The notes: a model not told the origin generated them from the sequence alone. Counted from the first letter of the stretch, positions 1-15,566 are shown. The stretch: DNA of 64,000 nt from a bacterium (GCA_963693055.1 OY843751.1:1056001-1120000); one strand, 5' to 3'. Translations and numbers: made by a program.

Positions 1-538
1 ATATGTGCATGCATCGGCTGGATATCGTAACAGGTCAAAGAAATCCCATTGGAAACTGCAAAAAGCTTATGGAGGCGGGGCATTGATGGATATGGGGGTA
101 TACTGCATACAAGGCGCAAGATATACAATTCAGGAAGAGCCTGTTAGTGTTACCGCGCAGCAATTTACCTTTGATCCTGAACGTTATGATGAAGTGGATG
201 AAATGGTGACCATGCAATTTGAATTCCCTGGAGGTGCAGTTGCAAATTTAACCACAACATTTGCAGCCAGTACAAATACGCTTTACGCGGCCGCTGAAAA
301 AAAATGGTTCAGCATGAATCCTTTCTCGCTCTATAATGGATTAACCTTGCGTACACAGGATGGCCCGGTAAATCTGCCGGATATTAATCAGCAAGCCGCG
401 CAAATGGATGATGTGGCCTGGAGTATCGCAAAAAAACTGCCAATGCGGGTACCCGGTAAAGAGGGATTACAAGACATCAAGATTGTCACCGCTGTTAAAA
501 AAGCAATTAAAACCGGGAATAAAGTTGAAATATTGTAG
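1..538 (+). CDS. Gfo/Idh/MocA family oxidoreductase (glucose-fructose oxidoreductase-like), C-terminal part; 5' end lies outside the window
   Basis: YGGGALMDMGVYC motif and C-terminal GFO-like segment; the ORF runs from the window edge. Confidence 0.85.
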   Translation, partial: YVHASAGYRNRSKKSHWKLQKAYGGGALMDMGVYCIQGARYTIQEEPVSVTAQQFTFDPERYDEVDEMVTMQFEFPGGAVANLTTTFAASTNTLYAAAEKKWFSMNPFSLYNGLTLRTQDGPVNLPDINQQAAQMDDVAWSIAKKLPMRVPGKEGLQDIKIVTAVKKAIKTGNKVEIL

Positions 539-573
539 CTTTACTATTATTGATTAATCGAACAGGAGTTTGC

Positions 574-2388
574 ATGTCGGAACATATTATGATCAGTCTG
601 TCAAGTGTCATTATTCTGGGTATTGGCGCGCAATGGCTGGCATGGCGTTTAAAATTACCTTCAATATTATTTTTGCTCTTATTCGGCTTTATTGCTGGTC
701 CTATTACCGGGTTTCTGAATCCCGATGAATTGATGGGAGAGCTTTTACTGCCGGTAGTTTCAATTTCGGTTGCAGTGATTTTGTTTGAAGGGGGCCTGAC
801 ATTAAAACTCAACGAGTTGAAAGAGATTGGTCGACAGGTCATGACGCTTATTTTTGTGGGCGTTTTGGTTACCTGGGCAATTGCCGCTGTTTCCGCGCAT
901 TATATTTTGCATTTGAACTGGAATATTTCATTATTACTGGGATCTATTCTGGTTGTTACTGGCCCTACGGTTATTGGGCCTTTGCTGCGTCATATCCGCC
1001 CAACCCAAAAAGTAGGTAAAATATTAAAGTGGGAAGGTATTGTTATTGATCCCATTGGGGCTTTGCTTGCTGTACTGGTTTTTGAAGGTATATTGATTGG
1101 TGAAATGGGCAAGGCCGGCACGGTTGTCATGTTGAGCATTGGTAAAACTATAGTTTTTGGCAGTCTGATTGGCTTACTGGCGGCCGGATTGTTGGTCTTG
1201 TTTTTTAGACGGTTTTGGATACCCGATTTTTTGCAGGAGACTGTGACCTTGATGATGGTTGTAGCAGCGTTTGTGGCGTCTAATATGGTTCAGAAAGAAT
1301 CGGGATTATTTGCGGTTACCTTGATGGGCATAGCGCTTGATAATCAGAAATATGTTACGGTGAAACATATTGTAGAGTTTAAAGAAAATCTTAGAATCCT
1401 GGTAATCTCGGCCTTGTTCATATTGCTGGCAGCACGATTGAATTTGCAAGATTTTAAAGCTTGTAGTTATACCAGCTATATCTTTTTGGCGGTTATTGTT
1501 TTTATTGCTAGGCCGGTTTCGGTATTTTTGTCAACCATCAATTCCGGTTTGAATATTCGTGAAAAACTGTTCCTGTCGTGGATGGCCCCACGTGGAATTG
1601 TTGCTGCTGCCGTGGCTTCTATCTTTGCCCTGGAACTGACACATATTCATTTTCCACAGGCTGAATTTTTGGTGCCCATTACCTTTATGGTTATTGTGGG
1701 TACTGTAAGTATTTATGGGTTATCATCTTCTACGGTTGCCAGGCTGCTTGGGGTGTCGCAGCAAAATCCGCAAGGAGTGTTGTTTATTGGAGCGCACCAT
1801 TGGGCCAGGGCATTGGCTAAAATTTTACAGGAATATAATTTCCGGGTGGCCCTGGTTGATACAAACCGTTTTAATGTGAAAACCGCGAGAATGGAAGGTT
1901 TAAAAGTCTATCATGGTAATGTAATGTCTGAACATATTTTAGATGAAATGGAGCTGGAAGGGATTGGACGGATGGTTGCACTGACTTCAAATACCGAAGC
2001 GAATTCCATGGCTGCTATTCATTTTTCCGAATTATTTGACAAGGAAGAGTTGTATCAACTACCACCAGCACCGGAAACCAAGACGGATATTAATTCGTCC
2101 AAACATTTGCGTGGTAGATATTTATTTTCCAAAGATGCTTTTTACAATGCACTTAACACGCTATATATTAAAGGCTCTGTGATCAAGGCTACAAAGTTGA
2201 CCAAAGAATTTGATTTGCAAAATTTTTACAATTTATATCAGAACAAGGTCATTCCCTTGTTTTTGATAGTAGATGATAGACTTCGGGTGTTTACTGTTGA
2301 TACTGTGTTAGAGCCCAAACCAGACCAAATAATAATCGCCATGGTAGACCAAACTGTATTGCCATCCAACGCCAAGATGAAAGCTTGA
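574..2388 (+). CDS. NhaP-type (CPA1) cation:proton antiporter with C-terminal TrkA-N-like domain
   Basis: About 12 hydrophobic segments; motifs ILFEGG, TGPTV, EGIVIDPIG, APRGIVAA; soluble C-terminal domain. ATG 574 follows an AGGAG SD. Confidence 0.9.
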   Translation: MSEHIMISLSSVIILGIGAQWLAWRLKLPSILFLLLFGFIAGPITGFLNPDELMGELLLPVVSISVAVILFEGGLTLKLNELKEIGRQVMTLIFVGVLVTWAIAAVSAHYILHLNWNISLLLGSILVVTGPTVIGPLLRHIRPTQKVGKILKWEGIVIDPIGALLAVLVFEGILIGEMGKAGTVVMLSIGKTIVFGSLIGLLAAGLLVLFFRRFWIPDFLQETVTLMMVVAAFVASNMVQKESGLFAVTLMGIALDNQKYVTVKHIVEFKENLRILVISALFILLAARLNLQDFKACSYTSYIFLAVIVFIARPVSVFLSTINSGLNIREKLFLSWMAPRGIVAAAVASIFALELTHIHFPQAEFLVPITFMVIVGTVSIYGLSSSTVARLLGVSQQNPQGVLFIGAHHWARALAKILQEYNFRVALVDTNRFNVKTARMEGLKVYHGNVMSEHILDEMELEGIGRMVALTSNTEANSMAAIHFSELFDKEELYQLPPAPETKTDINSSKHLRGRYLFSKDAFYNALNTLYIKGSVIKATKLTKEFDLQNFYNLYQNKVIPLFLIVDDRLRVFTVDTVLEPKPDQIIIAMVDQTVLPSNAKMKA

Positions 2389-2478
2389 CAATAATAAAAA
2401 TAATATTTATTTTTTAAACTAGTGAACTCATCAGATCGATAGATGTGTGTCTGTCGAAATTAACTCAGGAGAAGAAAA

Positions 2479-3240
2479 ATGAAATTTCGCAGTTTTACTT
2501 TTGTAGTATTGGCACTACTTTTCATCTCTGTTACTTTTGTAGCAGCGCAAGAACAAGAACTCCCTGATCCCAAATTGACCGAAGTATGGGAACCGGTTCC
2601 CCCAATTGTTACACCTGGTGAAGGTACAGCTGCCCCATCAGATGCGATTGTTTTGTTTGATGGTACGGATTTTTCCAATTGGAAACATGCAGATGGAAAA
2701 CCTGTAAAATGGTTTCTGAATAAAGACCAAGGTTGCATGACCGTTGTTAAAAAGACCGGAACAATTGAAACAAAACAAGAATTTGGTGATATTCAACTTC
2801 ATATCGAATGGCGTACCCCTGCAATTCCTGTTGGTCGTGGACAGGGACGTGGCAATAGCGGCGTTTTCTTTCAAAAACGGTACGAGCTGCAAGTGCTGGA
2901 TTCATATCTGAACCAGACCTATTCAAATGGTCAGGCTGGTAGTATTTACAAGCAATCTATTCCATTGGTTAATGCCAGCAAAGGTCCCGGCGAATGGCAA
3001 ACTTATGATGCAATCTTTATTGCACCCCGTTTTAACGATGATGGCTCTTTAAAATCTCCGGGTTATATTACTGTATTGCATAATGGTGTATTGATTCAGA
3101 ACCATTTTGAAATTCAGGGTCCTACAGAATATCGTGGAAAACCGGAATATAAAGCACATCCCCTTAAACAAGGGATTATGCTGCAAGATCATGGGAATCC
3201 TACAAGTTTTAGAAATATCTGGGTAAGAGAATTGGATTAA
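2479..3240 (+). CDS. DUF1080 (3-keto-disaccharide hydrolase family) secreted protein
   Basis: Signal peptide; LFDG, GNSGVF, YELQVLDS, GEWQTYD, LQDHG and FRNIW motifs; SD CAGGAG. Confidence 0.9.
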   Translation: MKFRSFTFVVLALLFISVTFVAAQEQELPDPKLTEVWEPVPPIVTPGEGTAAPSDAIVLFDGTDFSNWKHADGKPVKWFLNKDQGCMTVVKKTGTIETKQEFGDIQLHIEWRTPAIPVGRGQGRGNSGVFFQKRYELQVLDSYLNQTYSNGQAGSIYKQSIPLVNASKGPGEWQTYDAIFIAPRFNDDGSLKSPGYITVLHNGVLIQNHFEIQGPTEYRGKPEYKAHPLKQGIMLQDHGNPTSFRNIWVRELD

Positions 3241-3248
3241 GATTTTTT

Positions 3249-3283
3249 TACAGGCCATCAAGCTTTTGGTGGCCTGTATTTTT
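3249..3283 (+). terminator. Intrinsic terminator
   Basis: TACAGGCCATCAA/TTGGTGGCCTGTA stem followed by a T-run after the DUF1080 gene. Confidence 0.8.
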
Positions 3284-3623
3284 GTGGGGCTGTTATGTAA
3301 ATTATTGTACAGATTGTAATTGTTAAGCCGATAATATTTTTCAATTCTTTATTGCAATAATTTAAATTTTTCCATAGTATATTAATATTTATTTCCAGTT
3401 TGTTGATGTATATCCAGTATCAAGGAAATTATACCACTTAATGGAACGCCACTAATGTTGCAACGGGACAATATTATTTCCGCTTGACAACTGAAAACTA
3501 TTGTGCTATTCGCAAATGTACATTGTTGAAATAGAATGTTTTTGGCGATAAATATGTTATATTAATAATATTGATTATTGAAATTATCCCGGATGAATTT
3601 AGGGATAATGATAAGGAGCGCTA

Positions 3624-4490
3624 GTGGATTTAAAAACGACGTTGTTCAGATATCGGTTATTGATTATCACTGTTTTGGGATTTTTTGTGCTGATTCTTGT
3701 ATCGATGCTGAACGAAATTCTGGATTTACCACACCTGCTTTTCAATCAGCCCGCAACGCCAATCAACAAGACCGAGTTTTTGTTAGAAACTTTTATGCTG
3801 CTATGCTTTGGATTTGTTATTAATGTCAGTGTTTTTATCTATTCTTATCGATATAATCGTTCCAAAGTTATGCTTATGCGGTCATTGGAAGAAAAGGAAT
3901 TTCTGCTCAAAGAGATCCATCACCGTGTCAAGAATAATCTGGCTCTGATTACCAGCATTATTAACCTGCAGGAACGATCTGTTGATGATGAGCAATTTAA
4001 AAATATTTTGCAGGACCTGAAAAGCAGAATAACTTCCATAACACTCATTCATAAAAAATTATATACATCCGATGATTTGAATACAACCCATGCTGAAACC
4101 TATTTCCGCGAACTGCTTGAAGAAGTAACACAGATATCTGACAAATCGATTGATATTCAAATGGATTTTGATGATATCCGCATCGATCAGAAAACGCTTA
4201 TTCCTTTGGCTATTGTAACTAGCGAGTTGGTGACCAATGCCATTAAATATGCCTTCCCGGATGAAACCCATCCGCAGATTCGCATGACTTTAAAAAATAG
4301 AAAAGAAAACCTTTTATTCAGCCTGGGGAACAATGGCGCTGGATTGCCGGAGGATTTTTCAATAGAAAATTATTCTTCATTGGGGCTAACACTGGTGAGG
4401 CTGCTGACCAGCCAGATTAATGGGGATTTGGAGATTGTTACTGAACCACACACTGAATTTAGGATAAGGTTCCCGGTGGATGGGGAGTGA
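3624..4490 (+). CDS. Membrane sensor histidine kinase, HisKA_2 family
   Basis: Two TM helices, LLKEIHHRVKNNL H-box, ELVTNAIKYAF N-box, SSLGL G-box; SD AAGGAG before GTG. Confidence 0.9.
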   Translation: MDLKTTLFRYRLLIITVLGFFVLILVSMLNEILDLPHLLFNQPATPINKTEFLLETFMLLCFGFVINVSVFIYSYRYNRSKVMLMRSLEEKEFLLKEIHHRVKNNLALITSIINLQERSVDDEQFKNILQDLKSRITSITLIHKKLYTSDDLNTTHAETYFRELLEEVTQISDKSIDIQMDFDDIRIDQKTLIPLAIVTSELVTNAIKYAFPDETHPQIRMTLKNRKENLLFSLGNNGAGLPEDFSIENYSSLGLTLVRLLTSQINGDLEIVTEPHTEFRIRFPVDGE

Positions 4491-4551
4491 AATTTTAATA
4501 TTTAATCAAAGAAAAGTTTTGACGTAACAAGCCAGGGGCAAATAAAAAGGG

Positions 4552-5604
4552 ATGGTTATGATGAAAACCTATATTTTTCGCAAGAGCATAATATTATTCG
4601 CAATTGCTGTATCTCCACTGTTTAACTGTTTTAATCATCAGGACCATCAGGTGACCAGGCCCGAGGTCCCCCGTTATGTGCTGACAGGTACAACAATTGA
4701 TTATACCACCGGACTGCCTTTGGCCAATGTCCCCTTGAAAATAACGGCAGGTATGTTGGTATATGATGTTCGGTTTAACAGCCAAACTCTGCAATCTGAC
4801 AGCAGCGGTTTTTTTTCAATTTCTCCGGTATATCCCGGTAATTATACATTGTACGCGCAAAAAAATGGCTGCTGGTTACAAGGCAGTAAGCTGGAGATAC
4901 AACATGAAGACCGTGATTTTGTATGTAAAGTACCAAATGTAGTTTATGGTCGTTTACATTCATCAAAATTATTTATTGATGATAAAACATTCCCAAATGC
5001 AAATGATTTTTATCGTAGCTTTACTATAAGCAGTTTAACTGGTATTTTCCCAATAAAGTTTTTAGAATATGATCTAAGCTGGTCATATTATTTTGCAAAT
5101 GTAACACTAAAAAACGGCTTGAATACATATTTGTCACATTTTAAGTCTGAAATACCATTAAAGGGAATATATCAATTGGCTATAGGTGGCGGGTATTGCT
5201 GGGGTTGTAAAAAACCGGATTCAATATTGGTGTTTGATCAATGGCAATATACGTTTTTGAATAAATATTCAACAGGTGTTTTTATTAAAGATATTGCCTA
5301 TAACGTGAATGATAAAAATTTATATGCCTGTACTGACTCTTTACTGTACCAGGTAGATGTGAAAACATACGCTATGAATGAAATAGCGGCATTACCCATA
5401 ACCGGTACAATCGCCATGACATGGAATGATAATTATCTTTATCTTTTGCAAGGCACGGAGGACCTTGTCTATAAACTTGACAATCGATTGCGAATCGTTG
5501 ATATTTTTGCCATAGTCGATCAGACAGACAACTTTCAATACACCCAATTGTATGATATGAATTTTGATGGATATAATAATTTGTGGATATCGGTTGAGGG
5601 GTAA
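4552..5604 (+). CDS. Putative lipoprotein: carboxypeptidase-regulatory-like domain plus probable beta-propeller (paralog 1)
   Basis: Hydrophobic N-terminus ending LFNC; GTTID-TG-PLANV...SDSSGFF...PGNYTL pattern; propeller-like strands in the C-terminal half. Confidence 0.65.
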   Translation: MVMMKTYIFRKSIILFAIAVSPLFNCFNHQDHQVTRPEVPRYVLTGTTIDYTTGLPLANVPLKITAGMLVYDVRFNSQTLQSDSSGFFSISPVYPGNYTLYAQKNGCWLQGSKLEIQHEDRDFVCKVPNVVYGRLHSSKLFIDDKTFPNANDFYRSFTISSLTGIFPIKFLEYDLSWSYYFANVTLKNGLNTYLSHFKSEIPLKGIYQLAIGGGYCWGCKKPDSILVFDQWQYTFLNKYSTGVFIKDIAYNVNDKNLYACTDSLLYQVDVKTYAMNEIAALPITGTIAMTWNDNYLYLLQGTEDLVYKLDNRLRIVDIFAIVDQTDNFQYTQLYDMNFDGYNNLWISVEG

Positions 5605-5780
5605 ACTTTATTCAAGTTTACGTTAATTAACTAGTCCGTTATATACGAACTGTTACTTTTCTCTATACTAAATTCAGAATCAAATTTTTGGATGAAAGGT
5701 GATATATTTTCATACAGATTCAATTTCATGTAAAAAGTTTTTATAAAAGATACTTGACTATTGTTTTTTTTTATTTTTTC

Positions 5781-6180
5781 TTGCCCTTGGATCGGGCGAA
5801 AAATAAGGGGTTAAAAATGAAAAAAATTAAAGTTCTTGGGATTTTTCTTTTATTTTCAGTAATTGTTTTTGGTGGCTTTCAGATTATTAATGTTTCACCT
5901 GCCTATGCTCTAGATAATCCATTTTGTGGTACTGGAATTTATGTCAGAGTGTAATCTATGATGTAGAATGTCAATCTTGTTGGTGCGAACAACTTGGTGG
6001 TGGTCATAGATATTGTTGGGTTTGTCAGTGTTATATTGAGGAAATCGAGTATACTTATATTTCACAGGAGTTAACTTGTGATTATGAGGAGCAATGGCAT
6101 CCCTGCTATGGTTATTAATTGTTAAAACTTAAATAGTCTAAACATACACTGTACAATAGTTTGATCTGATCCAGGGGCAA
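5781..6180 (+). repeat. Long-range inverted repeat enclosing peptide gene 1 (arms 5781-5800 and 6160-6180)
   Basis: TTGCCCTTGGATCGGGCGAA pairs with TTTGATCTGATCCAGGGGCAA: 20 bp including four G-U pairs and one bulge. Confidence 0.85.
5817..6118 (+). pseudogene. Secreted 10-Cys peptide 1, split by a 1-nt frameshift at ~5936 (pseudogene or sequence error)
   Basis: ATG 5817 after AAGGGG; signal peptide ends AYA. Adding one A in GGAATTT gives CGTGNLC, which matches CPVDNLC in the paralogs and joins the 5924-6118 frame. Confidence 0.85.
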
Positions 6181-6191
6181 ATAAAAAAGGG

Positions 6192-7241
6192 ATGGTTATG
6201 ATGAAAACCTATATTTTTCGCAAGAGCATAATATTATTCGCAATTGCTGTATCTCCACTGTTTAACTGTTTTAATCATCAGGACCATCAGGTGACCAGGC
6301 CCGAGGTCCCCCGTTATGTGCTGACAGGTACAACAATTGATTATACCACCGGACTGCCTTTGGCCAATGTCCCCTTGAAAATAACGGCAGGTATGTTGGT
6401 ATATGATGTTCGGTTTAACAGTCAAATCCTGCAATCTGACAGCAGCGGTTTTTTTTCAATTTCTCCGGTATATCCCGGTAATTATACATTGTACGCGCAA
6501 AAAAATGAGTGCTGGTTACAAGGTACCAGGTTAGAAATACAACATAATGACCGTGATTTTGTATGCAAAGTACCAAATGTGATTAATGCAAATCTACATC
6601 CAAGTCAAATTTATACAGGTTCTCATTTGTACCCTAATGCAAATGGATTTTATCGTTGTTTTACAATTACAAGTTTAACAGGTGTAATCCCAGTAAAGTT
6701 GATTAGTGCTGATAAAATTTCATATTATTTTGGTAAGGTTACATTAAAGAACGGCTTTGGAAAATATTCATCATTACATGAAACCAATTCTTCATTACAA
6801 AATATATATCAACTTGCACTTGGTGATGAAAAGTTTTGGGGTTGTAAAAAACCGGATTCAATATTGGTGTTTGATCAATGGCAATATACATTTTTAAACA
6901 AATATTCGACAAATGTTTTTATTAAAGATATTGCCTATAACGTGAATGATAAAAATTTATATGCCTGTACTGACTCTTTACTGTACCAGGTAGATGTAAA
7001 AACATACGCTATGAATGAAATAGCGGCATTACCCATAACCGGTACAATCGCCATGACATGGAATGATAATTATCTTTATCTTTTGCAAGGCACGGAGGAC
7101 CTTGTCTATAAACTTGACAATCGATTGCAAATCGTTGATATTTTTGCCATAGTCGATCAGACAGACAACTTTCAATACACCCAATTGTATGATATGAATT
7201 TTGATGGTTATAATAATTTGTGGATATCGGTTGAGGGGTAG
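6192..7241 (+). CDS. Putative lipoprotein: carboxypeptidase-regulatory-like domain plus probable beta-propeller (paralog 2)
   Basis: Paralog of 4552-5604; about 7 aa differences outside the central ~85 aa. Confidence 0.65.
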   Translation: MVMMKTYIFRKSIILFAIAVSPLFNCFNHQDHQVTRPEVPRYVLTGTTIDYTTGLPLANVPLKITAGMLVYDVRFNSQILQSDSSGFFSISPVYPGNYTLYAQKNECWLQGTRLEIQHNDRDFVCKVPNVINANLHPSQIYTGSHLYPNANGFYRCFTITSLTGVIPVKLISADKISYYFGKVTLKNGFGKYSSLHETNSSLQNIYQLALGDEKFWGCKKPDSILVFDQWQYTFLNKYSTNVFIKDIAYNVNDKNLYACTDSLLYQVDVKTYAMNEIAALPITGTIAMTWNDNYLYLLQGTEDLVYKLDNRLQIVDIFAIVDQTDNFQYTQLYDMNFDGYNNLWISVEG

Positions 7242-7312
7242 ATATAAATTTCTTACATTTTTTTAAATTCTTGTATTATTAATTGAAATTTGCTAAAAAT
7301 ATTAAAAATATC

Positions 7313-7341
7313 TTGACTTTTACGATAATATTTGCTAATTA
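7313..7341 (+). promoter_or_regulatory. Putative sigma70 promoter of peptide gene 2 (duplicated at 7885-7913 for gene 3)
   Basis: TTGACT-N17-TAAT(T/A)A with TG extension in both copies. The -10 is imperfect. It would place +1 at about the start of the 5' stem arm. Confidence 0.55.
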
Positions 7342-7740
7342 AATATCAATCCTTGGGTCGTACAAAACTAAAATTTCAAATAAAATCTTAGGGGATTTAT
7401 TATGAAAAAGATGAAAACTATTAGTCTGGTTCTATTAGTAGCTGTAGTTGTCTTTGGTGGGATTCATATAGTTAATATTGAAAGTGCAAACGCCAGGCCT
7501 GGTTGTCCAGTAGAGAATATGTGCCCTAGCTGGTCATATTGTAAGTCATGTTGGTGTTCTAGTGATGGTTTTACAAGTACCTGGATATGCGAATGTCAAA
7601 AGGCATCTGATTTAGACCATTTCTTTCAAGTAGCAGAAATTGTTCCAGAGTGTGATGAGGGGCCTTGCTATTACGATTGTCCTGAACCTCCAGGTGATGA
7701 TTAAAAATAAATAAAATTTGATGACCCAAGGATTGTATTT
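7341..7740 (+). repeat. Long-range inverted repeat enclosing peptide gene 2 (arms 7341-7366 and 7717-7740)
   Basis: AAATATCAATCCTTGGGTCGTACAAA pairs with TTTGATGACCCAAGGATTGTATTT: 24 bp, two single-nt bulges, one G-U. Confidence 0.92.
7402..7704 (+). CDS. Secreted 10-Cys peptide 2
   Basis: SD AGGGGA; Sec signal ending ANA; mature part has 10 Cys including CxxCWC and WICEC. Confidence 0.9.
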   Translation: MKKMKTISLVLLVAVVVFGGIHIVNIESANARPGCPVENMCPSWSYCKSCWCSSDGFTSTWICECQKASDLDHFFQVAEIVPECDEGPCYYDCPEPPGDD

Positions 7741-7911
7741 GTAAAACGGTAAAAATGGATTTATTTTTTAGTTAAGATTTCAAGTTGTTGCTCTCTTGTT
7801 TGGAAAAAGTTTGAAGATAGGTTAATATATTTAAATTTAAAAATAATTTTTTATAATATTTTTTTCGAACAAAAATAAAACATCTTGACTTTTGCGATAA
7901 TAATTGCTAAT

Positions 7912-8317
7912 AAGATATCAATTCTTGGGTCGTACAAAACTAAAATTTCAAATAAAATCTTAGGGGATTTATTATGAAAAAGATGAAAACTATTAGTCTT
8001 GTTCTATTAGTAGCTGTAGTTGTCTTTGGTGGGATTAATATAGTAAATGTTCAAAATGCAGATGCAAGTATTGGCTGTCCAGTAGATAATCTTTGTCCTA
8101 GTTGGGCACATTGTAATAAATGTTGGTGCTCAGATGATAGTGGTGGTGGTGCCAGTACATGGATCTGTGAATGTGAAAGTTTAAAATCTGGTAATAAATA
8201 TCCTGTCGCTGAAATTGAACCGGTATGTAATGAAGGGCCGTGTTATTGGACTTGCCCTGAACCTCCAGGTTGATGATTTAATATAAATAATATTTGATGA
8301 CCCAAGGATTTTATTTT
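7912..8317 (+). repeat. Long-range inverted repeat enclosing peptide gene 3 (arms 7912-7938 and 8293-8317)
   Basis: AATTCTTGGGTCGTACAAA pairs with TTTGATGACCCAAGGATT; the C>T change at 7923 leaves a U-G wobble. Confidence 0.9.
7974..8273 (+). CDS. Secreted 10-Cys peptide 3
   Basis: First 21 aa identical to peptide 2; signal ends ADA; same 10-Cys framework. Confidence 0.9.
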   Translation: MKKMKTISLVLLVAVVVFGGINIVNVQNADASIGCPVDNLCPSWAHCNKCWCSDDSGGGASTWICECESLKSGNKYPVAEIEPVCNEGPCYWTCPEPPG

Positions 8318-8341
8318 TTTGACAAAATTTTTTAAATTGGA

Positions 8342-8917
8342 GTGGGAATGAAGAAAATTAATTTTACCAATTTATTGTTTATAATAATTTTTGTTTTAAT
8401 GTCATTTGAAGTTATATACCTCAGTGTACAAAATAAAAAGTTAACGAACCAATTGAACAAGCGAGTTTATGCTACTGAAAGCAAACCCGATTTGCCTGTT
8501 GGCACCCAGTTACCAGATTTGTCATTTACTTTACAAAATCAGGATAGAATTGATTTGTCAGCGCATAATGATAAATACTTTTTTGTGTTTTTCTCAACCC
8601 ACTGTCAAGCTTGTGTACAGGATGCTGATACATGGGAAAATATGAATGAGTTGAATACCAAGAATCAAGTGAAAATGATAGGGATCTGTAAAGGTGATCC
8701 TGATGTAGTAAAAGAATTTATGGCACTGCACAAGCTAAACTTTCCTGTTGTTCCTGATCCTGAAAATGAAATTGTTAATCAATTTGGAATAAAATCATTC
8801 CCCAGCAAATGTCTGGTTGATGAAAATAATAAAGTTGTCTTCTATTCCAGAGGATCCTCAGGGAAAAGAGATTTAGAGCAATTAAAAAAGATTGTACCTG
8901 AATTACAGGCAGGTTAA
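8342..8917 (+). CDS. Membrane-anchored TlpA/ResA/AhpC-TSA-like thiol-disulfide oxidoreductase
   Basis: N-terminal TM helix; G-x-x-LPD, FFSTHCQAC (CxxC), LNFPVVPD, FGIKSFP (cis-Pro loop). Confidence 0.85.
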   Translation: MGMKKINFTNLLFIIIFVLMSFEVIYLSVQNKKLTNQLNKRVYATESKPDLPVGTQLPDLSFTLQNQDRIDLSAHNDKYFFVFFSTHCQACVQDADTWENMNELNTKNQVKMIGICKGDPDVVKEFMALHKLNFPVVPDPENEIVNQFGIKSFPSKCLVDENNKVVFYSRGSSGKRDLEQLKKIVPELQAG

Positions 8918-8920
8918 GAT

Positions 8921-9550
8921 ATGAAGAAGATAGCGATGAATGCTTTGTTGGTTATTGTATTGCTCGCGGTTGGTATTCACTTTGTTATACAAATCAATAA
9001 CAACAATAACGTTTTGGCTGAAATTGATGATTCGCTCAAGCCCTTGTCATATCAGCAGCAAGTTGATTACATGAAACAGGTTTTTGCTCAGGCGGACTCG
9101 TTTCGTTATATTAAATTCAGGGACCAGTTTTTTTATCATGTCTTTCAGGATACGGTCCCGGTTGGGTATGCTAAAATTATCGACAAGGACCTTGCCTGTT
9201 CTACCTGTCGTGATGTGAGATATTTATGCGCCCTGGACAGTGCCTTGTGTGTTAAAGAGGTTATACTTATCAGTGAATTGGACCAGAAACGTATCTATGA
9301 CAAAATACTCCATTTAGAAGATGGTGTAAACCGAGTGGTTGGGAAAAAAGTTTTTAATATTGTGAATTTGTCTGATTTTGTTTCTCAATTCATCAGCACA
9401 TTACCAAGTGATAAAATTTTTAACAAGGATGCGGAGATTGATGTAATCAGTGGTGCCACCAAGACCAGTCACAGTATGTATGAGGGCATTAGAGAGTTTT
9501 TAGATGAAGCGGCTTATTACTCCAGGCAATATCATGCGCAAAATTTGTGA
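8921..9550 (+). CDS. Exported FMN-binding domain protein with flavinylation motif and CxxC
   Basis: N-terminal hydrophobic anchor; IDVISGATKTS ([S/T]GA[S/T]) motif; CSTC plus two more Cys; starts 3 nt after the upstream stop. Confidence 0.75.
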   Translation: MKKIAMNALLVIVLLAVGIHFVIQINNNNNVLAEIDDSLKPLSYQQQVDYMKQVFAQADSFRYIKFRDQFFYHVFQDTVPVGYAKIIDKDLACSTCRDVRYLCALDSALCVKEVILISELDQKRIYDKILHLEDGVNRVVGKKVFNIVNLSDFVSQFISTLPSDKIFNKDAEIDVISGATKTSHSMYEGIREFLDEAAYYSRQYHAQNL

Positions 9551-9577
9551 TTTTTTATTCCTTTTTAAAAAGATGTT

Positions 9578-9610
9578 TTTGCCTGGCACAACCTGCCAGT
9601 GTCAGGCAAA
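9578..9610 (+). terminator. Hairpin closing the peptide/redox operon
   Basis: TTTGCCTGGCAC/GTGTCAGGCAAA 12-bp stem; no immediate U-tract. Confidence 0.55.
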
Positions 9611-9828
9611 CAGATGTAATTTTTATATAATAAATTATGCATGGATAAATAAAATGTTTGCTTTTGTGCTATAATTATTGTATAATTTCAAAATTGATCC
9701 CAAAGTAAAAATTTTGCAATTTTTTTATACAGTGTGTTTTTGACACAGGGTTTGGTGTGTCTACATGTGCCGGGAAAAGTGTGTTTATCTAATTATTCTT
9801 ATTAACTCATAATTCGAGAGGGTGTATT

Positions 9829-10776
9829 ATGCGTAATTGTTTCATTTCATGTCTGTTACTAGTATTACTTTCAAGTGTAGTTTTTGGCAATGAACAGAAA
9901 TTTGTAGATGATGTAGAGCAGTTTGTAGCACAATTGAATTCCCAGGAACAAGCATTTGAGAAACGCAGTATTCAAACTCAAATGAATATAATTAATGAAC
10001 GTCGAGTTCCTTATGCAATGATCTATGAGCAGACAGGATTGTTTACCTGGCAGCTGTTTTCAAATTGTTTTTTTGATTCTGATGTTGATACAACTACTAC
10101 AGTAAACGTGAATATTGATTACAGACCCACAACTGATCAATTTACTGTAATACCCGCTTATTTTACTTTTACTTCAGAACGTCCCTATGATTCATTGGAT
10201 GATTTTAAAGCTTTTATGATTACAGTCTTTCAGAGTGTAGGGTCCGCTCATTCGGTTTTAATTGATGAAGCCAATAGCAGATATGGATTTACAGGCCATC
10301 ATTATTGCCAGTCATTTTATTCCGGTACAACAAAATTGGTTCTTGATTGTTATTTTGTATATGTTAATGATGTTGCCTGTGCATTTTATTATATGACAGG
10401 TGACTCGTTTTATGACAATGCCTTGTATCAACTCTTTTTTGAATTGATTCTTGATGTGGTTGAATTTCAACAACCAAGTGCAATCAATAACGAATCCTTG
10501 AAAAAACCGGTGAATTTTGACATGTCTCAAAATTACCCGAATCCTTTTAACGCTTGTACCCGGATCCAATACTCTGTCAATGAGCCTACTGATGTAAAAA
10601 TTGAGATTTTTGATGTCAATGGTAGATTAGTACAGACTCTGGTAGACAAGTTTCATTCCCAGGGACAATATGACATTAGCTTTGATGCAAACGATTTGGC
10701 CAGTGGAGTTTATATTTACAGAATTTCTGATATGAACCATGCTTCCCGTGCACATCGGATGATCTTGGTAAAATAA
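9829..10776 (+). CDS. Secreted protein of unknown function with C-terminal T9SS/FlgD-like sorting domain
   Basis: Signal peptide; QNYPNPFN...IFDVNGRLV...LASGVYIY...MILVK. Confidence 0.8.
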   Translation: MRNCFISCLLLVLLSSVVFGNEQKFVDDVEQFVAQLNSQEQAFEKRSIQTQMNIINERRVPYAMIYEQTGLFTWQLFSNCFFDSDVDTTTTVNVNIDYRPTTDQFTVIPAYFTFTSERPYDSLDDFKAFMITVFQSVGSAHSVLIDEANSRYGFTGHHYCQSFYSGTTKLVLDCYFVYVNDVACAFYYMTGDSFYDNALYQLFFELILDVVEFQQPSAINNESLKKPVNFDMSQNYPNPFNACTRIQYSVNEPTDVKIEIFDVNGRLVQTLVDKFHSQGQYDISFDANDLASGVYIYRISDMNHASRAHRMILVK

Positions 10777-10789
10777 ATGTGAAATTCAA

Positions 10790-10830
10790 CGTGTCGGAGA
10801 TTAGCTTTACCGATCTCCGACACGATTATT
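10790..10830. terminator. Terminator between convergent genes
   Basis: CGTGTCGGAGAT/ATCTCCGACACG 12-bp stem. Confidence 0.8.
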
Positions 10831-10835
10831 TTTTA

Positions 10836-12311
10836 TTATCTGGACAATATCTTTTTCTGGTTGGCGGGACGCGGCATGAAAAAGTCGTATTGACCAATAC
10901 CGCATTCCTGAATCATCTCAATGCAATATTCCAGGCGTTTTAATTCTTCCGCATTACGATTGTTGGTGCCCATGGCGAATTTACATCCTGCTGCTTTTGC
11001 TTTTTTAATGAATGTTGCGCTGGGTACGCAGTAGCGGTCATTGATCTCTATGGCAACGTCGTTTTCCAATGCGGCTTTAATCACTTTATCCATGCGGGCA
11101 TCGGTCCACAGTTCATCATAGCGATCACGGATGATCTCGGGCAGTACCGTGGAATTGACATATATGTCGATAGGCTCATGCAATACACCGACTATTTTTT
11201 CCACATACAAGTCCATCCATTTTTGCACATCATCAATTTCTACCTCTTCATTTTTCCAGATGTGGATGCGCTTGCCGCGGTGATCGGTAAAGGTCATGGC
11301 GTCTGAAAAGACATAATCGAATTTGGCAATGGCTTTTTTACTAAACAATTCCATCCACTCGCGGCCTTCGGCCTGCATGCCCAGATACACCGGTTTGTCT
11401 TTCATAGATTCGATGAATTCATAGATACCTTCATCTGTATTGATGGGGAAATCGAGTCCGCAGTTGGGTGCAATACCGTACATGATACCATCACGCATAG
11501 ATTGAGCCAGCGCCATATCCAGGGTAAGGTCTTCTTTTAAATGAACGTGAAAGTCGATAACCGGATAGTTGTCGTGGTTCATGTTGAGGAGTGTGGTGTA
11601 GGTTTCGTCCACAACTGGGGTGACAATTTCACCGGGATCCGCATCGTCCGGTAGTGGTTTGACCATAATGTTTTTATACATGGCTGTGCTGTTGGGATCG
11701 TGACATTGGAACGCGAATGTACCGCTGGAAAGCACGCGACCGGGTTCACTGGGGCGAACCGGATGTTCAGGCTCTACATAGTCTGATACCAGCATATCAT
11801 TGATCCATACCTGAATACGTGGAACAACCACTTTGATACGCATGGTGAACCACTCATCATCATCAATAAACTGTTTAAAAGTATTGCGTACCGCATAGAT
11901 ACTGCCGGTTTTTTTGTATTCGTACCAGGTACCGTCAGCACTGGGCTTTTGTGAATTGTTGACCTGTATCTCATAACCGTGATCAGGCCAGCCATCCTGC
12001 TGATATTTAGAATGCACATAGATACCGGAATTGGAATTGGCGCGGGCCATCACATCGGCCTTGAATTCAAAGTTTTTGAAATTATGTTCCATGACCGGGC
12101 CATCATAAAAGAGATGCGCGCGTGTACCGTTGCATACAATGGCGCCGTTTTCGATTCGGGCCGATTCACTGTTTTCACTTATTTTCCAACCATCAAAAGA
12201 TTCTCCGTCAAACAGGGGAATCCAGTTTTTAGCATCAGGATCACCGCATCCGGAGAAAAAGACCAGGAACGATACTGACAACAAGAGGGGGAGGAGCATC
12301 CGGTATTTCAT
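10836..12311 (-). CDS. Lipoprotein: DUF1080 domain fused to a PHP-like domain
   Basis: Lipobox FSGC; NSGIY, YEIQV and FQCHD motifs; then DFHVHL and AIEIN PHP-type motifs. Confidence 0.8.
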   Translation of the reverse strand: MKYRMLLPLLLSVSFLVFFSGCGDPDAKNWIPLFDGESFDGWKISENSESARIENGAIVCNGTRAHLFYDGPVMEHNFKNFEFKADVMARANSNSGIYVHSKYQQDGWPDHGYEIQVNNSQKPSADGTWYEYKKTGSIYAVRNTFKQFIDDDEWFTMRIKVVVPRIQVWINDMLVSDYVEPEHPVRPSEPGRVLSSGTFAFQCHDPNSTAMYKNIMVKPLPDDADPGEIVTPVVDETYTTLLNMNHDNYPVIDFHVHLKEDLTLDMALAQSMRDGIMYGIAPNCGLDFPINTDEGIYEFIESMKDKPVYLGMQAEGREWMELFSKKAIAKFDYVFSDAMTFTDHRGKRIHIWKNEEVEIDDVQKWMDLYVEKIVGVLHEPIDIYVNSTVLPEIIRDRYDELWTDARMDKVIKAALENDVAIEINDRYCVPSATFIKKAKAAGCKFAMGTNNRNAEELKRLEYCIEMIQECGIGQYDFFMPRPANQKKILSR

Positions 12312-12330
12312 GTTACATTCCTTTCTGTAA

Positions 12331-13275
12331 TTATGAATTGATTAATACCAGCTTGCCGGCAACATGACCAGTCTCAAGCAATGTATGAGCATTGTTTGCG
12401 TTTTGCAAGGTGAATTCTTTTTCTCTATGGATATTAATTCTTTTATCTTCGAACAAGCTTCTAAAAATGTGCAGATCTTTTGCATTGGGAGTGACAACCA
12501 TGCCGACCGCTTTGCGCCCCAATTCTTTTGCTTTGATAGTAACCGCTTGTGTGGATATGGTAGGGAGACAAACCAATAAGCCATTTGGGGCCAGGCATTC
12601 AAGTGAGCGAAAACCGGTTTCTCCGCCAACAGCGTCTATGATCAAATCCATTTCTTTAGCGATCTCGGTAAAATCCTCTTTTATATAATCGATACACCGA
12701 TCAACACCTAGTGAATAAAGCAATTCGTGGTGATTGGCAGATGCGGTTGCGGTTACATGAGCATTTTGAGCTTTGGCAAACTGTACGGCAAGATGCCCAA
12801 CGCCGCCGGCGGCTGCGTGTATTAGCACATTTTGTCCGGATTGTAAATGTCCTGTGTTGTGCAGGGCCTGCCATGCAGTTAATCCTGCCAGGGGAACACC
12901 GGCAGCCTCAGACCATGATATTGTAGAGGGCTTTATAGCAATTTCATTGGGATACACTATAGCATAATCCGCATATGCACCGGCACGGTTCAGAGCAATC
13001 ATGCCGTAAACCTCATCACCCGGTTTGAATTGGGAAATGGAATCTCCGCACTGCTCTACAGTTCCTGCCAGGTCGTATCCCGGTGTCCAGGGTAGGTGGT
13101 CTTTGATCTTTTGCGCTATGAATCCCAGTCCCTTACGGGTTTTCCAGTCGATGGGATTAATACCCGCGGCATGGACTTGCACCAAAATCTGATCGTGATT
13201 GATTTGTGGTTTTTCTACCTCCTGGTATACTAGAACAGATGGGGGGCCGAATGCTGTAATTTGAACGGCTTTCAT
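12331..13275 (-). CDS. NADP-dependent quinone oxidoreductase (MDR superfamily)
   Basis: MKAVQI..FG, AAGINPID, PLAGLTAWQAL, HAAAGGVGH motifs. Confidence 0.92.
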   Translation of the reverse strand: MKAVQITAFGPPSVLVYQEVEKPQINHDQILVQVHAAGINPIDWKTRKGLGFIAQKIKDHLPWTPGYDLAGTVEQCGDSISQFKPGDEVYGMIALNRAGAYADYAIVYPNEIAIKPSTISWSEAAGVPLAGLTAWQALHNTGHLQSGQNVLIHAAAGGVGHLAVQFAKAQNAHVTATASANHHELLYSLGVDRCIDYIKEDFTEIAKEMDLIIDAVGGETGFRSLECLAPNGLLVCLPTISTQAVTIKAKELGRKAVGMVVTPNAKDLHIFRSLFEDKRINIHREKEFTLQNANNAHTLLETGHVAGKLVLINS

Positions 13276-13282
13276 TTTTTCC

Positions 13283-15430
13283 TTATTTTAATAGCAAACA
13301 TTTTTTTATATCAGTGGCATTCTCTGTTTCGAGTTTGTAAAAATAAACGCCGCTGGGAAGATTTTTTGCGTTAATGGTTAATTTGTGATTTCCCGTGGAT
13401 TGTACTCCGCTGTATAATTTTTGTACCAGTTGTCCGTTTGTGTTGTACAAAGAAATCGAAATAAACTGTTTTTGTAGCAAGTCATATTCAATAACCGTTT
13501 CTGGATTAAAGGGATTAGGATAGTTTTGTTTTAATAGAAATTCCATGGGAACTGGTTCCGAAGGATTTTCTGAAATGGCAGTTGTTGGATCATATTTTAT
13601 AAACCAAAGACCGGTTTCCCTATTGAGAATACCAATTAAGTCATCCTGAATGGCTAATTTTCTTGCTTCATCATTATTATCAAAAGAGCCTGTTGATTCC
13701 AGGTTGTTACTATCATTCAAGTCAAAAATGTTTAATGCGATTGATGTACTTGCAGTATAAAGTGAATTGTTTAATATCTCCATTTCAAAAATATAGTTTC
13801 TATAGCTGACAGCATGAGATTCAGTTATTGCTGCAGGATTTGTTATATCAATATATCGGACATAGCGTGAATAATCATAAGTGATTATATAATTTTCAAA
13901 AAAAGTGAGTGCCGATATACGATTGGGGGTTGTAAATGAATCCACTTTAACCGGGTTCAAATAATCTGACAGGTCAAACAGGTATAACCCGTTAGATCCT
14001 TCAAGCGTTGCAAGATATGGAACAGAATATTCGAATCCATCTATACTATTGTTTGTGCTAAAGGAACTGATCTCAACAAGTGATGTGGGATCAGAAATGT
14101 CGATGATACGAATATATCTGTCATTTGTTGCCACTATGATTTTGTCATTTTCTACATGTAAATATTCGCAAGAGTAGGATGAATCCAGTTTTCCTATAAC
14201 CTGTGGATTTTGTTTGTTTGATGTGTTCAGTATATATAAACCGGCATAAGACATGGCAATATATACCGTGTCATTTTTTACTTCAAGATCCGTTGCGTAA
14301 CAATGGTCCTGGCGCCAGGTAGATAATAATTGAGGATCTGACGGATTTGTTATATCGATAATTCGTAAACCATGATGTGAATTGGCAATATATGCGTAAT
14401 TGCCTTCTATTTCAATTTCCTGTAATCTGCCACCCGGTTCAATTATAGAGGGTGTCATAGAACCCATTTCAGCGTCCGGATCGAATTCGAACAGATACAC
14501 ATCGCCACCATTGTCTGCTATAATTACTTTTTCAGATGTAGCAGTTACAAAAAATGTGTTATCTGGTGTATAGTAATAATTTACCATTTCACAATTATGG
14601 GGATCAGAGATATCCCATATATCCAGCCCGTTTGAGCTGGCGACGATAGATATAAAATTGTCATGAATAAACATTTCATGTACTACGCTGCCGGTATACA
14701 TTGTATCAATAATAACAGGATTTTCAATGTCTGTTATATCATAAACGAATACATTGCCACCGCAGCCCGTATATAGAAAATTATCTTTAACATCAACAGC
14801 ATTATTTTTCCCATCAAGTGGAATATTGATCACCTCAAACATATTGGCAGGATCTGCAATATTGTATATAGTTGTTCCATCATTATAACCGGTTGTAAAA
14901 CAATAATCACCAGCTATATGAAAATCCTGGCAATAATGTGCATCTAATACCGAGATCAAGGTGGGCTCACTTTTATTACTAATATCCAGAGCTGTTATGT
15001 CGTTTGTAATGAGAAAAACAACATTGTCTTTAACACAAAGGTCTTGCACTTCATAGGTTTCATCGTTTCCCGGATATCTGGAGATTTCTGTTGGATTCAC
15101 CGGATCTGAAACATCAATAATGATCAGACCCTCTTTATAATTTCCAATGAATGCGGTCTGGTCCTGAACTTGAATGGCATTAATGATTCCTTTTGTTACT
15201 ACCTCGGAAATCAAAACCGGATTCTGTACGTCTGATATTTCATAAATCTGCAGGGTTCTTCCGTTTGCCATGAACAATGTATCGCCAGTTGCATAAACTG
15301 CTTCGCACAAACCATATGGCCATTCACCTAATAATGTACAATTTAAATTATCCTGTGGATTTGCGGAAACAGGTGCCCAAAAGCTTGAAAGAATTATAAA
15401 GAGGAGAATATAGTAAACATAATGTTTCAT
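13283..15430 (-). CDS. LVIVD-repeat beta-propeller protein with C-terminal T9SS/FlgD-like domain
   Basis: Repeated GL-IIDIS-P-NP units; QNYPNPFNP tail. Confidence 0.88.
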   Translation of the reverse strand: MKHYVYYILLFIILSSFWAPVSANPQDNLNCTLLGEWPYGLCEAVYATGDTLFMANGRTLQIYEISDVQNPVLISEVVTKGIINAIQVQDQTAFIGNYKEGLIIIDVSDPVNPTEISRYPGNDETYEVQDLCVKDNVVFLITNDITALDISNKSEPTLISVLDAHYCQDFHIAGDYCFTTGYNDGTTIYNIADPANMFEVINIPLDGKNNAVDVKDNFLYTGCGGNVFVYDITDIENPVIIDTMYTGSVVHEMFIHDNFISIVASSNGLDIWDISDPHNCEMVNYYYTPDNTFFVTATSEKVIIADNGGDVYLFEFDPDAEMGSMTPSIIEPGGRLQEIEIEGNYAYIANSHHGLRIIDITNPSDPQLLSTWRQDHCYATDLEVKNDTVYIAMSYAGLYILNTSNKQNPQVIGKLDSSYSCEYLHVENDKIIVATNDRYIRIIDISDPTSLVEISSFSTNNSIDGFEYSVPYLATLEGSNGLYLFDLSDYLNPVKVDSFTTPNRISALTFFENYIITYDYSRYVRYIDITNPAAITESHAVSYRNYIFEMEILNNSLYTASTSIALNIFDLNDSNNLESTGSFDNNDEARKLAIQDDLIGILNRETGLWFIKYDPTTAISENPSEPVPMEFLLKQNYPNPFNPETVIEYDLLQKQFISISLYNTNGQLVQKLYSGVQSTGNHKLTINAKNLPSGVYFYKLETENATDIKKCLLLK

Positions 15431-15500
15431 AATTGACCCCTTTTATTTGTTTGATAATACAGTATTAATACAATATACATATTACTGGTGCAGAGTCAAG

Positions 15501-15534
15501 AAAAAACTGATCTAAATACAATTTAGATCAGTTT
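15501..15534 (-). terminator. Intrinsic terminator after the GH16 gene
   Basis: AAACTGATCTAAAT/ATTTAGATCAGTTT perfect stem with a T-run on the minus strand. Confidence 0.75.
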
Positions 15535-15566
15535 GAATTGTATGATACTAAAAGCGGTATTAGGGG

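Follow-up and report, generated by a model that had tools for sequence, protein, structure and literature searches.

A bacterial cassette linking short cysteine-rich secreted peptides with a thioredoxin and a CxxC-containing FMN_bind-type protein

The window analysed in this work is a 64,000-nucleotide stretch of a bacterial genome (GCA_963693055.1 OY843751.1:1056001-1120000), of which bases 1-16000 were covered by the listing of open reading frames (ORFs). Within it lies a plus-strand gene cluster consisting of lipoprotein-like paralog 1 (4552..5604; 350 aa), peptide gene A (5817..6118), lipoprotein-like paralog 2 (6192..7241; 349 aa), peptide genes B (7402..7704) and C (7974..8273), a gene for a TlpA/ResA-like thioredoxin that has a hydrophobic anchor at its N-terminus and carries the motif CQAC (8348..8917, with an alternative GTG start at 8342), and a gene for an FMN_bind-type protein (8921..9550) that starts 3 nt past the thioredoxin stop. 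This last protein, called the CxxC-FMN protein here, has an N-terminal helix, a CxxC motif (C93 and C96) and an ApbE-type SGAT motif (residues 177-180). A preliminary description of this DNA had already noted two duplicated lipoprotein-like genes and the neighbouring CxxC thioredoxin-fold and CxxC/FMN-motif genes, and both observations are borne out: the former pair is 85% identical, and the latter genes encode CQAC (AhpC-TSA, E 1e-15) and CSTC/SGAT (FMN_bind, E 8e-4, below cut-off), respectively.

Peptide gene B encodes a Sec signal and a 69-aa acidic mature part, while gene C, its tandem duplicate (81% DNA identity, 7305-7740 versus 7877-8316), encodes a mature part of 68 aa. Both genes (100 and 99 aa) are unbroken and each encodes a Sec-like N-terminus and 10 Cys, and both mature peptides are acidic (D+E 13 in B and 9 in C, versus K+R 3 in each). 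The early picture of three secreted 10-Cys genes holds for these two, but gene A (302 nt) is frameshifted, with a stop after 45 codons of the first frame, a break at ~5928-5941 and the remainder in another frame. When read with an X at the break, gene A also yields 10 Cys, although on a different scaffold in which the last Cys is missing and an extra one precedes W-x-C-x-C. An assembly error is not favoured as the cause, the letters of gene A being identical and free of indels in contigs of three runs, all of them from one sample that is possibly the DNA's own source. The three motifs first quoted for these peptides, C-x3-N-[LM]-C, C-x2-C-W-C and W-x-C-x-C, are present.

The peptide family comprises five genes, found only in this genome and that of one sister species. 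Because its fifth member, encoded by the sister genome, carries 8 Cys, "exactly 10" Cys is no definition of the family. Cysteines have been lost pairwise (10 to 8), and the non-Cys residues diverge fast while the signal is conserved. Homologues beyond the two genomes were not found in any of the sets searched (3/7 candidates; 4/189; 41 and 167 genomes; metagenome contigs), nor in other genome contigs among the matches listed; ten weak matches surfaced in the 167-genome search, and none of the eight inspected was a peptide gene. Atlas leads for the peptide reached 0.76-0.77 only, and a structure model of peptide C is a beta-sheet of low confidence (pLDDT 59.7). Like defensins, conotoxins, pacifastin and VWC domains, these peptides combine a conserved signal and fixed cysteines with variable loops, but they are acidic and are set apart by sequence profiles: no Pfam or NCBIfam family matched at E<=1, known Cys-rich peptide families (defensin, conotoxin, pacifastin, VWC, NVEALA and Cys_rich_CWC) among them, and PDB sequences yielded a single weak match, to a TRIM5 fusion (E 0.033). 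Of the proposed family of five-disulfide miniproteins, the lack of a database match and, from the even Cys counts, likely disulfide bonding are supported.

The thioredoxin provides a broader view of the cassette. Its C86 and C89 are invariant across eight aligned members, its best NCBIfam match is ResA, below that family's cut-off, and relatives at E<=1e-12 are present in 9 of 167 genomes. Linkage was scored by the presence of a same-strand Sec-type ORF with at least 6 Cys within 2.5 kb, a rule written after the first eight loci had been seen and then fixed before ten new loci were scored. Such an ORF was found at 8/8 thioredoxin-relative loci outside the genus in the first set and, once the rule was fixed, at five of the ten new loci and not at the other five, the loci scored being kin and not independent. 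One of the five new passers contains 15 Cys in an ORF of 328 aa, and in two of them the thioredoxin lacks a CxxC in the frame read. The rule picked out not one of the 14 other AhpC-TSA genes used as controls in this genome, and it was passed by 50 of 5000 random sites (1%). Since the 6.5-Mb genome has only 30 ORFs with a Sec signal plus 6 Cys, and since random sites pass so rarely, the peptide cluster is not a product of chance.

The peptides beside the thioredoxin at other loci are unrelated to the window family, and yet their cysteines follow a shared pattern. Among cassette ORFs of up to 200 aa, Cys counts after residue 25 were even in 17/17 and 11/12 cases (28/29 in total) versus 10/18 control ORFs, and above six Cys the figures were 12/13 versus 3/11. 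The order peptide, thioredoxin, CxxC-FMN gene is retained in the sister genome, in keeping with the expected co-occurrence with redox genes. The linkage of peptides with the thioredoxin and the CxxC-FMN gene is real and well supported, and it returns across several bacterial lineages; the putative folding machinery first attributed to the peptides as their own is linked with many unrelated Cys-rich peptides as well.

The CxxC-FMN protein matches PF04205 (FMN_bind) at 20.5 bits, against a gathering cut-off of 22, and several relatives exceed that cut-off; its top Atlas matches are likewise FMN_bind (0.87). G178, A179 and T180 are invariant across five aligned members, and the complete genome has two ApbE genes. 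The structure model is of the alpha/beta FMN_bind type, though poor around SGAT (pLDDT <50 at 170-178). A search of PDB sequences with the FMN alignment gave no matches, and no close relatives were found in the metagenome scan. The protein resembles RnfG and NqrC (PF04205) in its membrane anchor, its weak PF04205/RnfG/NqrC matches, its [S/T]GA[S/T] motif and the two ApbE genes of its genome. In contrast to RnfG-like matches, it has a conserved CxxC, is paired with or fused to a thioredoxin, and lies outside any rnf or nqr operon, being flanked by the thioredoxin and by a secreted protein whose tail is of the sorting type. A CxxC lying 50-125 residues ahead of the flavinylation motif was found in 47 of the best 150 profile matches, and 11 of 21 CxxC-FMN proteins scanned were fused to AhpC-TSA domains. 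A neighbour that passes the linkage rule, an ORF of 193 aa with 7 Cys, was found at just one of 12 fused loci, so that the relay is not bound to peptides in every case. Beyond the fused group, the rule is passed by 5 of 15 CxxC-FMN loci (Latescibacterota and Poribacteria records), and four further ones have a 6-Cys peptide ~5 kb upstream. A CxxC-FMN gene in another genome (G124) has propellers and a pair of leader-type Cys peptides around it; as the latter lack Sec signals, that locus was left out of the cassette count.

The reading that we favour, with moderate confidence, is that a flavin-thioredoxin relay oxidatively folds secreted miniproteins outside the cytoplasm, the direction of electron flow being predicted. 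Sec would export the precursor, which signal peptidase I would cleave after A-x-A, and the anchored thioredoxin would donate or shuffle disulfides in the manner of MauD or DsbA, leaving five (or four) on a small beta-sheet. The thioredoxin's CxxC would be re-oxidised by that of its partner, which would hand electrons to an FMN that ApbE would have linked to SGAT, and the CxxC-FMN protein would thereby act in place of MauE or DsbB. Flavin sulfhydryl oxidases such as Erv/ALR, QSOX and Ero1, all-helical FAD folds of eukaryotes, similarly use a CxxC and a flavin as a disulfide source, and the thioredoxin fusions described above are reminiscent of QSOX; here, by comparison, the model is of the alpha/beta FMN_bind type and the FMN is predicted to be covalent.

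A closer parallel is the MauE-MauD pathway, where a dedicated CxxC thioredoxin also sits beside a small, disulfide-rich exported client, in that case methylamine dehydrogenase's small subunit. The cassette differs in that its clients are unrelated short peptides, that it lacks MauE, and that the partner is a single-anchor FMN_bind-type CxxC protein, whereas MauE is a four-helix, quinone-binding CxC protein. No MauE (PF07291) was found in bases 1-16000 of the window, and neither DsbB nor VKOR had a match in the complete genome, where positive controls did match. MauE (CGCF) is encoded once in that genome, unlinked, at 542 kb, and DsbD is present too. At other loci, the place of the CxxC-FMN gene is held by MauE: among 20 thioredoxin-found loci, five have MauE, four CxxC-FMN, none both and 11 neither in the stretch fetched, an exclusion that is not significant (p 0.28). 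MauE is reported to substitute for DsbB in E. coli, as a general replacement, and the preprint reporting this states that gaps remain in known bacterial disulfide formation (10.64898/2026.03.05.709764); FMN, flavin and TlpA are not mentioned in that paper. A literature search found no account of disulfide-rich secreted peptides clustered with a thioredoxin, although the cluster table of PMC8238504 may list such loci, and nothing was found on NVEALA, on MauE/MauD/DoxX with cysteine-rich proteins, or on DoxX plus thioredoxin plus RiPP precursor.

It is conceivable, if unlikely, that electrons flow in the opposite direction, with the flavoprotein, fed by DsbD, Rnf or quinol, reducing a thioredoxin that acts as a reductase or isomerase correcting wrong disulfides, while bond formation is left to the genome's general MauE. 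Proteins of the TlpA/ResA type act as reductases in most cases, ResA is the best NCBIfam match, and an isomerase is required by peptides with 4-6 disulfides, which also counts for this flow. The unlinked MauE and DsbD fit the same scheme and weigh against the relay as oxidant, for a genome with MauE does not need a second one. Yet MauE, itself a reported oxidant, adjoins this very thioredoxin clade at 5/20 loci, and no DsbD-like gene was noticed by eye in the cassette ORF lists. DsbD has been proposed as the electron source for ApbE-flavinylated proteins with thioredoxins (PMC8238504). As outlined there, clusters of DsbD, DUF3570, thioredoxin and DUF4266 likewise unite a thioredoxin with a flavinylated protein and a small Cys protein that is secreted, but their carrier is DUF3570, their small protein is CxC-only, and DsbD lies in the cluster (PMC8238504). 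The window proteins scanned had no match to the DsbD, DUF3570 or DUF4266 families.

The even Cys counts suggest that the peptides are likely disulfide-bonded. The same cysteines might instead make them exported binders of metals (Zn, Cu, Fe-S or toxic metals), with thiols kept reduced by the redox pair, and their acidity, the C-x2-C-x-C and C-x-C spacings that occur in metal sites too, and the TRIM5 fusion as the only PDB sequence match are compatible with such a role. It is improbable, however, given the excess of even counts over controls, both overall and above six Cys, the loss of cysteines in a pair, and the fast non-Cys divergence beneath a conserved signal. As to function, the acidity of the peptides argues against membrane lysis, and the most plausible, though speculative, mode of action of the folded peptides is the binding of a protein, as a signal or enzyme inhibitor.

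The two lipoprotein-like paralogs are near-identical at their ends, and their divergence is confined to a central block. Paralog 1 has a CarboxypepD_reg-like N-domain and a weak repeat-domain match in its C-half, and in the family alignment the Cys is invariant while the lipobox is non-canonical. They were first taken for cognate receptors or immunity proteins, and a toxin-immunity or ligand-receptor pairing, in which each peptide has its neighbouring lipoprotein as cognate, would suit the divergent central block, the lipoprotein-peptide-lipoprotein order found at two non-orthologous places (the window and locus L009 of genome G001), and the six-bladed propeller genes beside peptides at four other loci (Pfam). 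This pairing is nonetheless very improbable, and the evidence lends no support to a role as receptor or immunity protein. The family, with 10 matches each in this and the sister genome, occurs in 11 of 167 genomes, nearly always without a peptide; only two places among 27 loci scored have a peptide within 1.5 kb of a family gene. Moreover, the stretch ~4493-7258, including paralog 1, is absent at the sister genome's locus, and no lipoproteins occur at its orthologous cassette, contrary to the co-occurrence anticipated earlier. The orthologue of the L009 pair in this genome lacks the intervening peptide, and the broken peptide gene is the very one that the two lipoprotein genes of the window enclose. 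Probably both lipoproteins were inserted later and are dispensable for the cassette.

Each of the five family genes has 5' and 3' flanks joined by a covarying predicted helix of 11-16 bp. In the window, its arms lie at 5781..5796 and 6165..6180 for gene A (16 bp), 7347..7361 and 7721..7735 for gene B (15 bp, the 5' arm 34 nt past a TTGACT hexamer), and 7920..7933 and 8297..8310 for gene C (14 bp), all on the plus strand. The arms covary at six columns and keep G-U pairs that are workable on the sense strand only, features that fit RNA. That they instead terminate a small mobile DNA cassette whose neighbours are incidental is scarcely credible: the varying presence of peptide genes at orthologous sites, their tandem duplication and a lipoprotein duplication that begins inside a copy of a 3' arm would suit it, but the covariation and sense-strand-only pairs, together with a thioredoxin-peptide link that persists in genomes without arms, speak against it. 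In 5/5 genes, 19-40 nt separate the end of the helix from the ATG downstream, which leaves the ribosome-binding site outside. In type I toxin mRNAs such as aapA and hok, the ends of a small-protein message also pair, but there the pairing hides that site (10.1101/615682). No such pairing was found in 16 unrelated cassette genes (one with a 3' flank of 3 nt only), and the helix is not a general feature. A promoter scan was at chance (33 sites versus 27 expected), and no plus-strand terminator was found. Within the favoured relay, the helix would turn every peptide message into a closed, stable unit, with the result that peptide would outnumber the folding enzymes; it is a candidate means of setting peptide-to-enzyme ratios.

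In its widest form, the proposal is a tentative one: the CxxC-FMN protein may rank with DsbB, VKOR and MauE as a fourth disulfide generator of bacteria, namely a covalently flavinylated dithiol oxidase without a quinone-binding membrane core of its own, which together with one thioredoxin clade would mark a large, unannotated class of disulfide-rich bacterial miniproteins whose messages, in this genus, would be sealed by a covarying RNA helix. The thioredoxin clade serves as a search handle, having yielded 28 short ORFs that are secreted and have an even number of Cys; no family was found for any of the 12 scanned (10 searched against Pfam and 4 against NCBIfam, two being in both). Such ORFs are a source of new stable scaffolds and perhaps also of signals or inhibitors. 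Finally, many bacteria have no known disulfide-forming route, and for these the CxxC-FMN protein is now a named candidate.

Genes B (7402-7704) and C (7974-8273) have intact reading frames, each encoding a Sec-like leader of 31 residues followed by an acidic part of 68-69 residues with 10 Cys, as the preliminary description had claimed for three secreted miniprotein genes. The third, gene A (5817-6118; 302 nt), is frameshifted: a stop follows 45 codons of the first frame, the Cys-rich part lies in a different frame from its start, and 10 Cys, one at a different place, are obtained only by translating with an X at the break. The gene A sequence recurred letter for letter in contigs from three runs of one sample, possibly the source of the window's DNA. 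Genes B and C are tandem copies of one another (81% DNA identity), and so are the two lipoprotein genes (89%); the G+C content of the region is 34% versus 38.5% for the window. Searches of proteins and genomes brought the family just two more members, P0003 (10 Cys) and P0006 (8 Cys), both in the same-genus sister genome G001; genome and metagenome contig scans gave no extra member among the matches listed, and at E up to 1 neither Pfam nor NCBIfam gave a match. When B, C, and P0003 are compared, the leaders (26-30 of 31 residues identical) prove better conserved than the mature parts, where 16-30 of 49-56 non-Cys positions are identical. An AlphaFold2 model of C shows a three-stranded sheet at low confidence (mean pLDDT 59.7).

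The cassette in which these genes lie is real, and its redox pair, a TlpA/ResA-like thioredoxin with a CQAC motif (8348-8917) and an FMN_bind-type protein with a CxxC (CxxC-FMN; 8921-9550), turns up repeatedly beside secreted Cys-rich proteins, across at least three phyla. The association proposed earlier is supported. Relatives of the thioredoxin at E up to 1e-12 were found in 9 of 167 genomes, and all eight loci outside the genus (seven genomes) have, no more than 2.5 kb away on the same strand, a Sec-type ORF with six or more Cys; three such ORFs are longer (185, 433, and 547 aa). Such an ORF accompanied 0 of 14 other AhpC-TSA genes of the window genome, a set that omits one second-domain match, and 50 of 5000 random sites. 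Since this rule was formulated after the first eight loci had been seen, it was tested on ten new loci from a profile search, and held at five, one with an ORF of 328 aa and two with thioredoxins that lack a CxxC in the frame read. The remaining five comprise the two lowest-scoring, generic-looking thioredoxins, two apparent clade members without a peptide, and one locus at a contig end. Client ORFs elsewhere share no sequence kinship with the window family, and a Pfam scan of eight short ones named none. At G124:C59:32918-33319, two TGA codons inside the thioredoxin match may mark either a broken gene or selenocysteine.

Cys counts after residue 25 were even in all 17 cassette ORFs of up to 200 aa and in 11 of 12 from a second set at CxxC-FMN loci, compared with 10 of 18 control ORFs; three long cassette ORFs carry 15, 11, and 12. 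Because the six-Cys threshold favors a count of six, higher counts were compared separately, and were even in 12 of 13 cassette ORFs versus 3 of 11 controls.

The CxxC-FMN protein matches the FMN_bind profile weakly and by language-model features at 0.87. Five members, each from a different genome of the phylum, all keep its CxxC and G-A-T motif unchanged, and the modeled CxxC lies in a loop joining two strands (pLDDT 67 for the whole model but below 50 close to the motif). A profile search returned 1122 hits, and in 47 of the best 150 a CxxC precedes the flavinylation motif by 50-125 residues; 11 of 21 scanned hits are fused to AhpC-TSA domains. Two scans yielded 42 loci, of which 37 were scored (five repeats of the same contigs omitted) and 27 contain CxxC-FMN. 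Outside the fused deltaproteobacterial group, the three-gene cassette occurs at 5 of 15 CxxC-FMN loci (Latescibacterota and Poribacteria records), and at four more a 6-Cys peptide lies ~5 kb off. Only 1 of 12 fused loci has a nearby secreted Cys-rich ORF, which argues that the relay serves other clients too.

Several of these loci have further features. The deltaproteobacterial fusions (L144-L155) are thioredoxin-thioredoxin-CxxC-FMN proteins that measure ~540 aa and end in a conserved C-tail containing Cys; by eye, the next gene resembles an ABC solute-binding protein at L144, L149, and L153, and an Nqr/Rnf-like operon lies upstream at L144. At L135, L136, and L138, also by eye, an ApbE-like gene directly follows CxxC-FMN, with an ABC permease upstream. 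Two FMN-family members, P0041 and P0080, retain the CxxC with the GAT motif replaced and may lack covalent flavin. At locus L017 of genome G124 (5035-5470, 9754-9942, 11312-11896), a CxxC-FMN gene sits amid several six-bladed propeller genes, together with two tandem Cys peptides sharing a leader without a Sec signal; a short ORF there, without a Pfam hit, looks like the beginning of a radical SAM enzyme of the kind that modifies peptides.

All five peptide genes are flanked by complementary 5' and 3' arms (16, 15, 14, 14, and 11 bp), and in their alignment six columns vary on both sides and four core columns contain G-U pairs, a pattern consistent with a sense-strand RNA helix. All five family genes, representing only about three independent lineages, have a flank helix of 10 bp or more that includes at least five G-C pairs, versus 16 of 1500 control ORFs. 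Against shuffled flanks, duplex z-scores were -3.7, -5.6, -3.3, -2.0, and -1.8; the helix of the two G001 genes is thus weak on its own. The stretches that were folded had been cut at the arms, a choice that favors closure. In four genes, 33-35 nt separate a TTGA(C/T)T hexamer from the start of the 5' arm (27 nt in A), which places the arm about where the transcript would be expected to start, and the helix ends 19-40 nt upstream of the start codon. Type I toxin messages, in the accessible text of 10.1101/615682, hide the ribosome site by 5'-3' pairing, whereas the present helix stops before the start codon and, judging from sequence, may be a stabilizing or processing stem. None of 16 unrelated cassette genes showed such a helix.

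The two lipoproteins around gene A (4552-5604 and 6192-7241) had been suggested as cognate receptor or immunity proteins, a role left unsupported by an orthologous locus without a lipoprotein, by many paralogs, and by peptides at only two places, the window and G001, among 27 loci scored with 1.5-kb flanks. The orthologous G001 locus carries, in order, a kinase gene, a peptide gene, the thioredoxin gene, and CxxC-FMN, and lacks any counterpart of window ~4493-7258. Each of the two genomes has 10 matches to the lipoprotein family, which is present in 11 of the phylum's 167 genomes. Nonetheless, a lipoprotein-peptide-lipoprotein sandwich occurs twice, in the window and around the second G001 peptide; the pair that matches the latter in the window genome stands 114 nt apart with no peptide between. 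The duplicated lipoprotein unit (4532-5603 and 6171-7240) begins within a copy of the 3' arm of gene A. Its two copies agree almost completely toward their ends (54-60 of 60 in each block) and far less in the middle (35-49 of 60), a pattern suggestive of gene conversion or diversifying selection. Elsewhere in the window genome (G000:C1:2496521-2497931), three lipoprotein-like genes in tandem, coding for 148-149 aa each, conserve a Cys pattern. The sister genome (L008:13716-14525) has an extra 269-aa gene, with short repeats on either side, at the stem-loop that follows gene 9829-10776; its counterpart is missing from the window (site 10774-10837).

As to the direction of the relay, oxidative folding via the thioredoxin and a flavinylated dithiol protein is, with modest confidence, the best mechanism. 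Among 20 thioredoxin-found loci, MauE occurs at five, CxxC-FMN at four, both at none, and neither at 11; this exclusion is not significant (p 0.28), and p is 0.04 once eight FMN-found loci are included, with no correction for kinship. According to the accessible text of 10.64898/2026.03.05.709764, which mentions neither FMN, flavin, nor TlpA, MauE can substitute for DsbB in E. coli. The gene slot common to MauE and CxxC-FMN points to an oxidant. The main rival, a rather improbable one, is a reductive or isomerase role, kept alive by the unlinked MauE and DsbD of the window genome, which also has two ApbE genes and in which no DsbB or VKOR was found. Its only MauE (G000:C1:541945-542849) follows, by eye, a rhodanese-like gene. 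A flavin-thioredoxin hybrid fed by DsbD, described in the available part of PMC8238504, differs from the window's pair, and "CxxC" occurs 0 times in that listing; the available part of PMC10979944 does not mention thioredoxin, cysteine, or CxxC. A literature search, with subscription journals and supplements outside its coverage, found nothing on this cassette.

The cassette is of a kind already known, a dedicated disulfide pathway plus its client, and it is conceivable, if somewhat doubtful, that the CxxC-FMN pathway constitutes a new class of disulfide generator.
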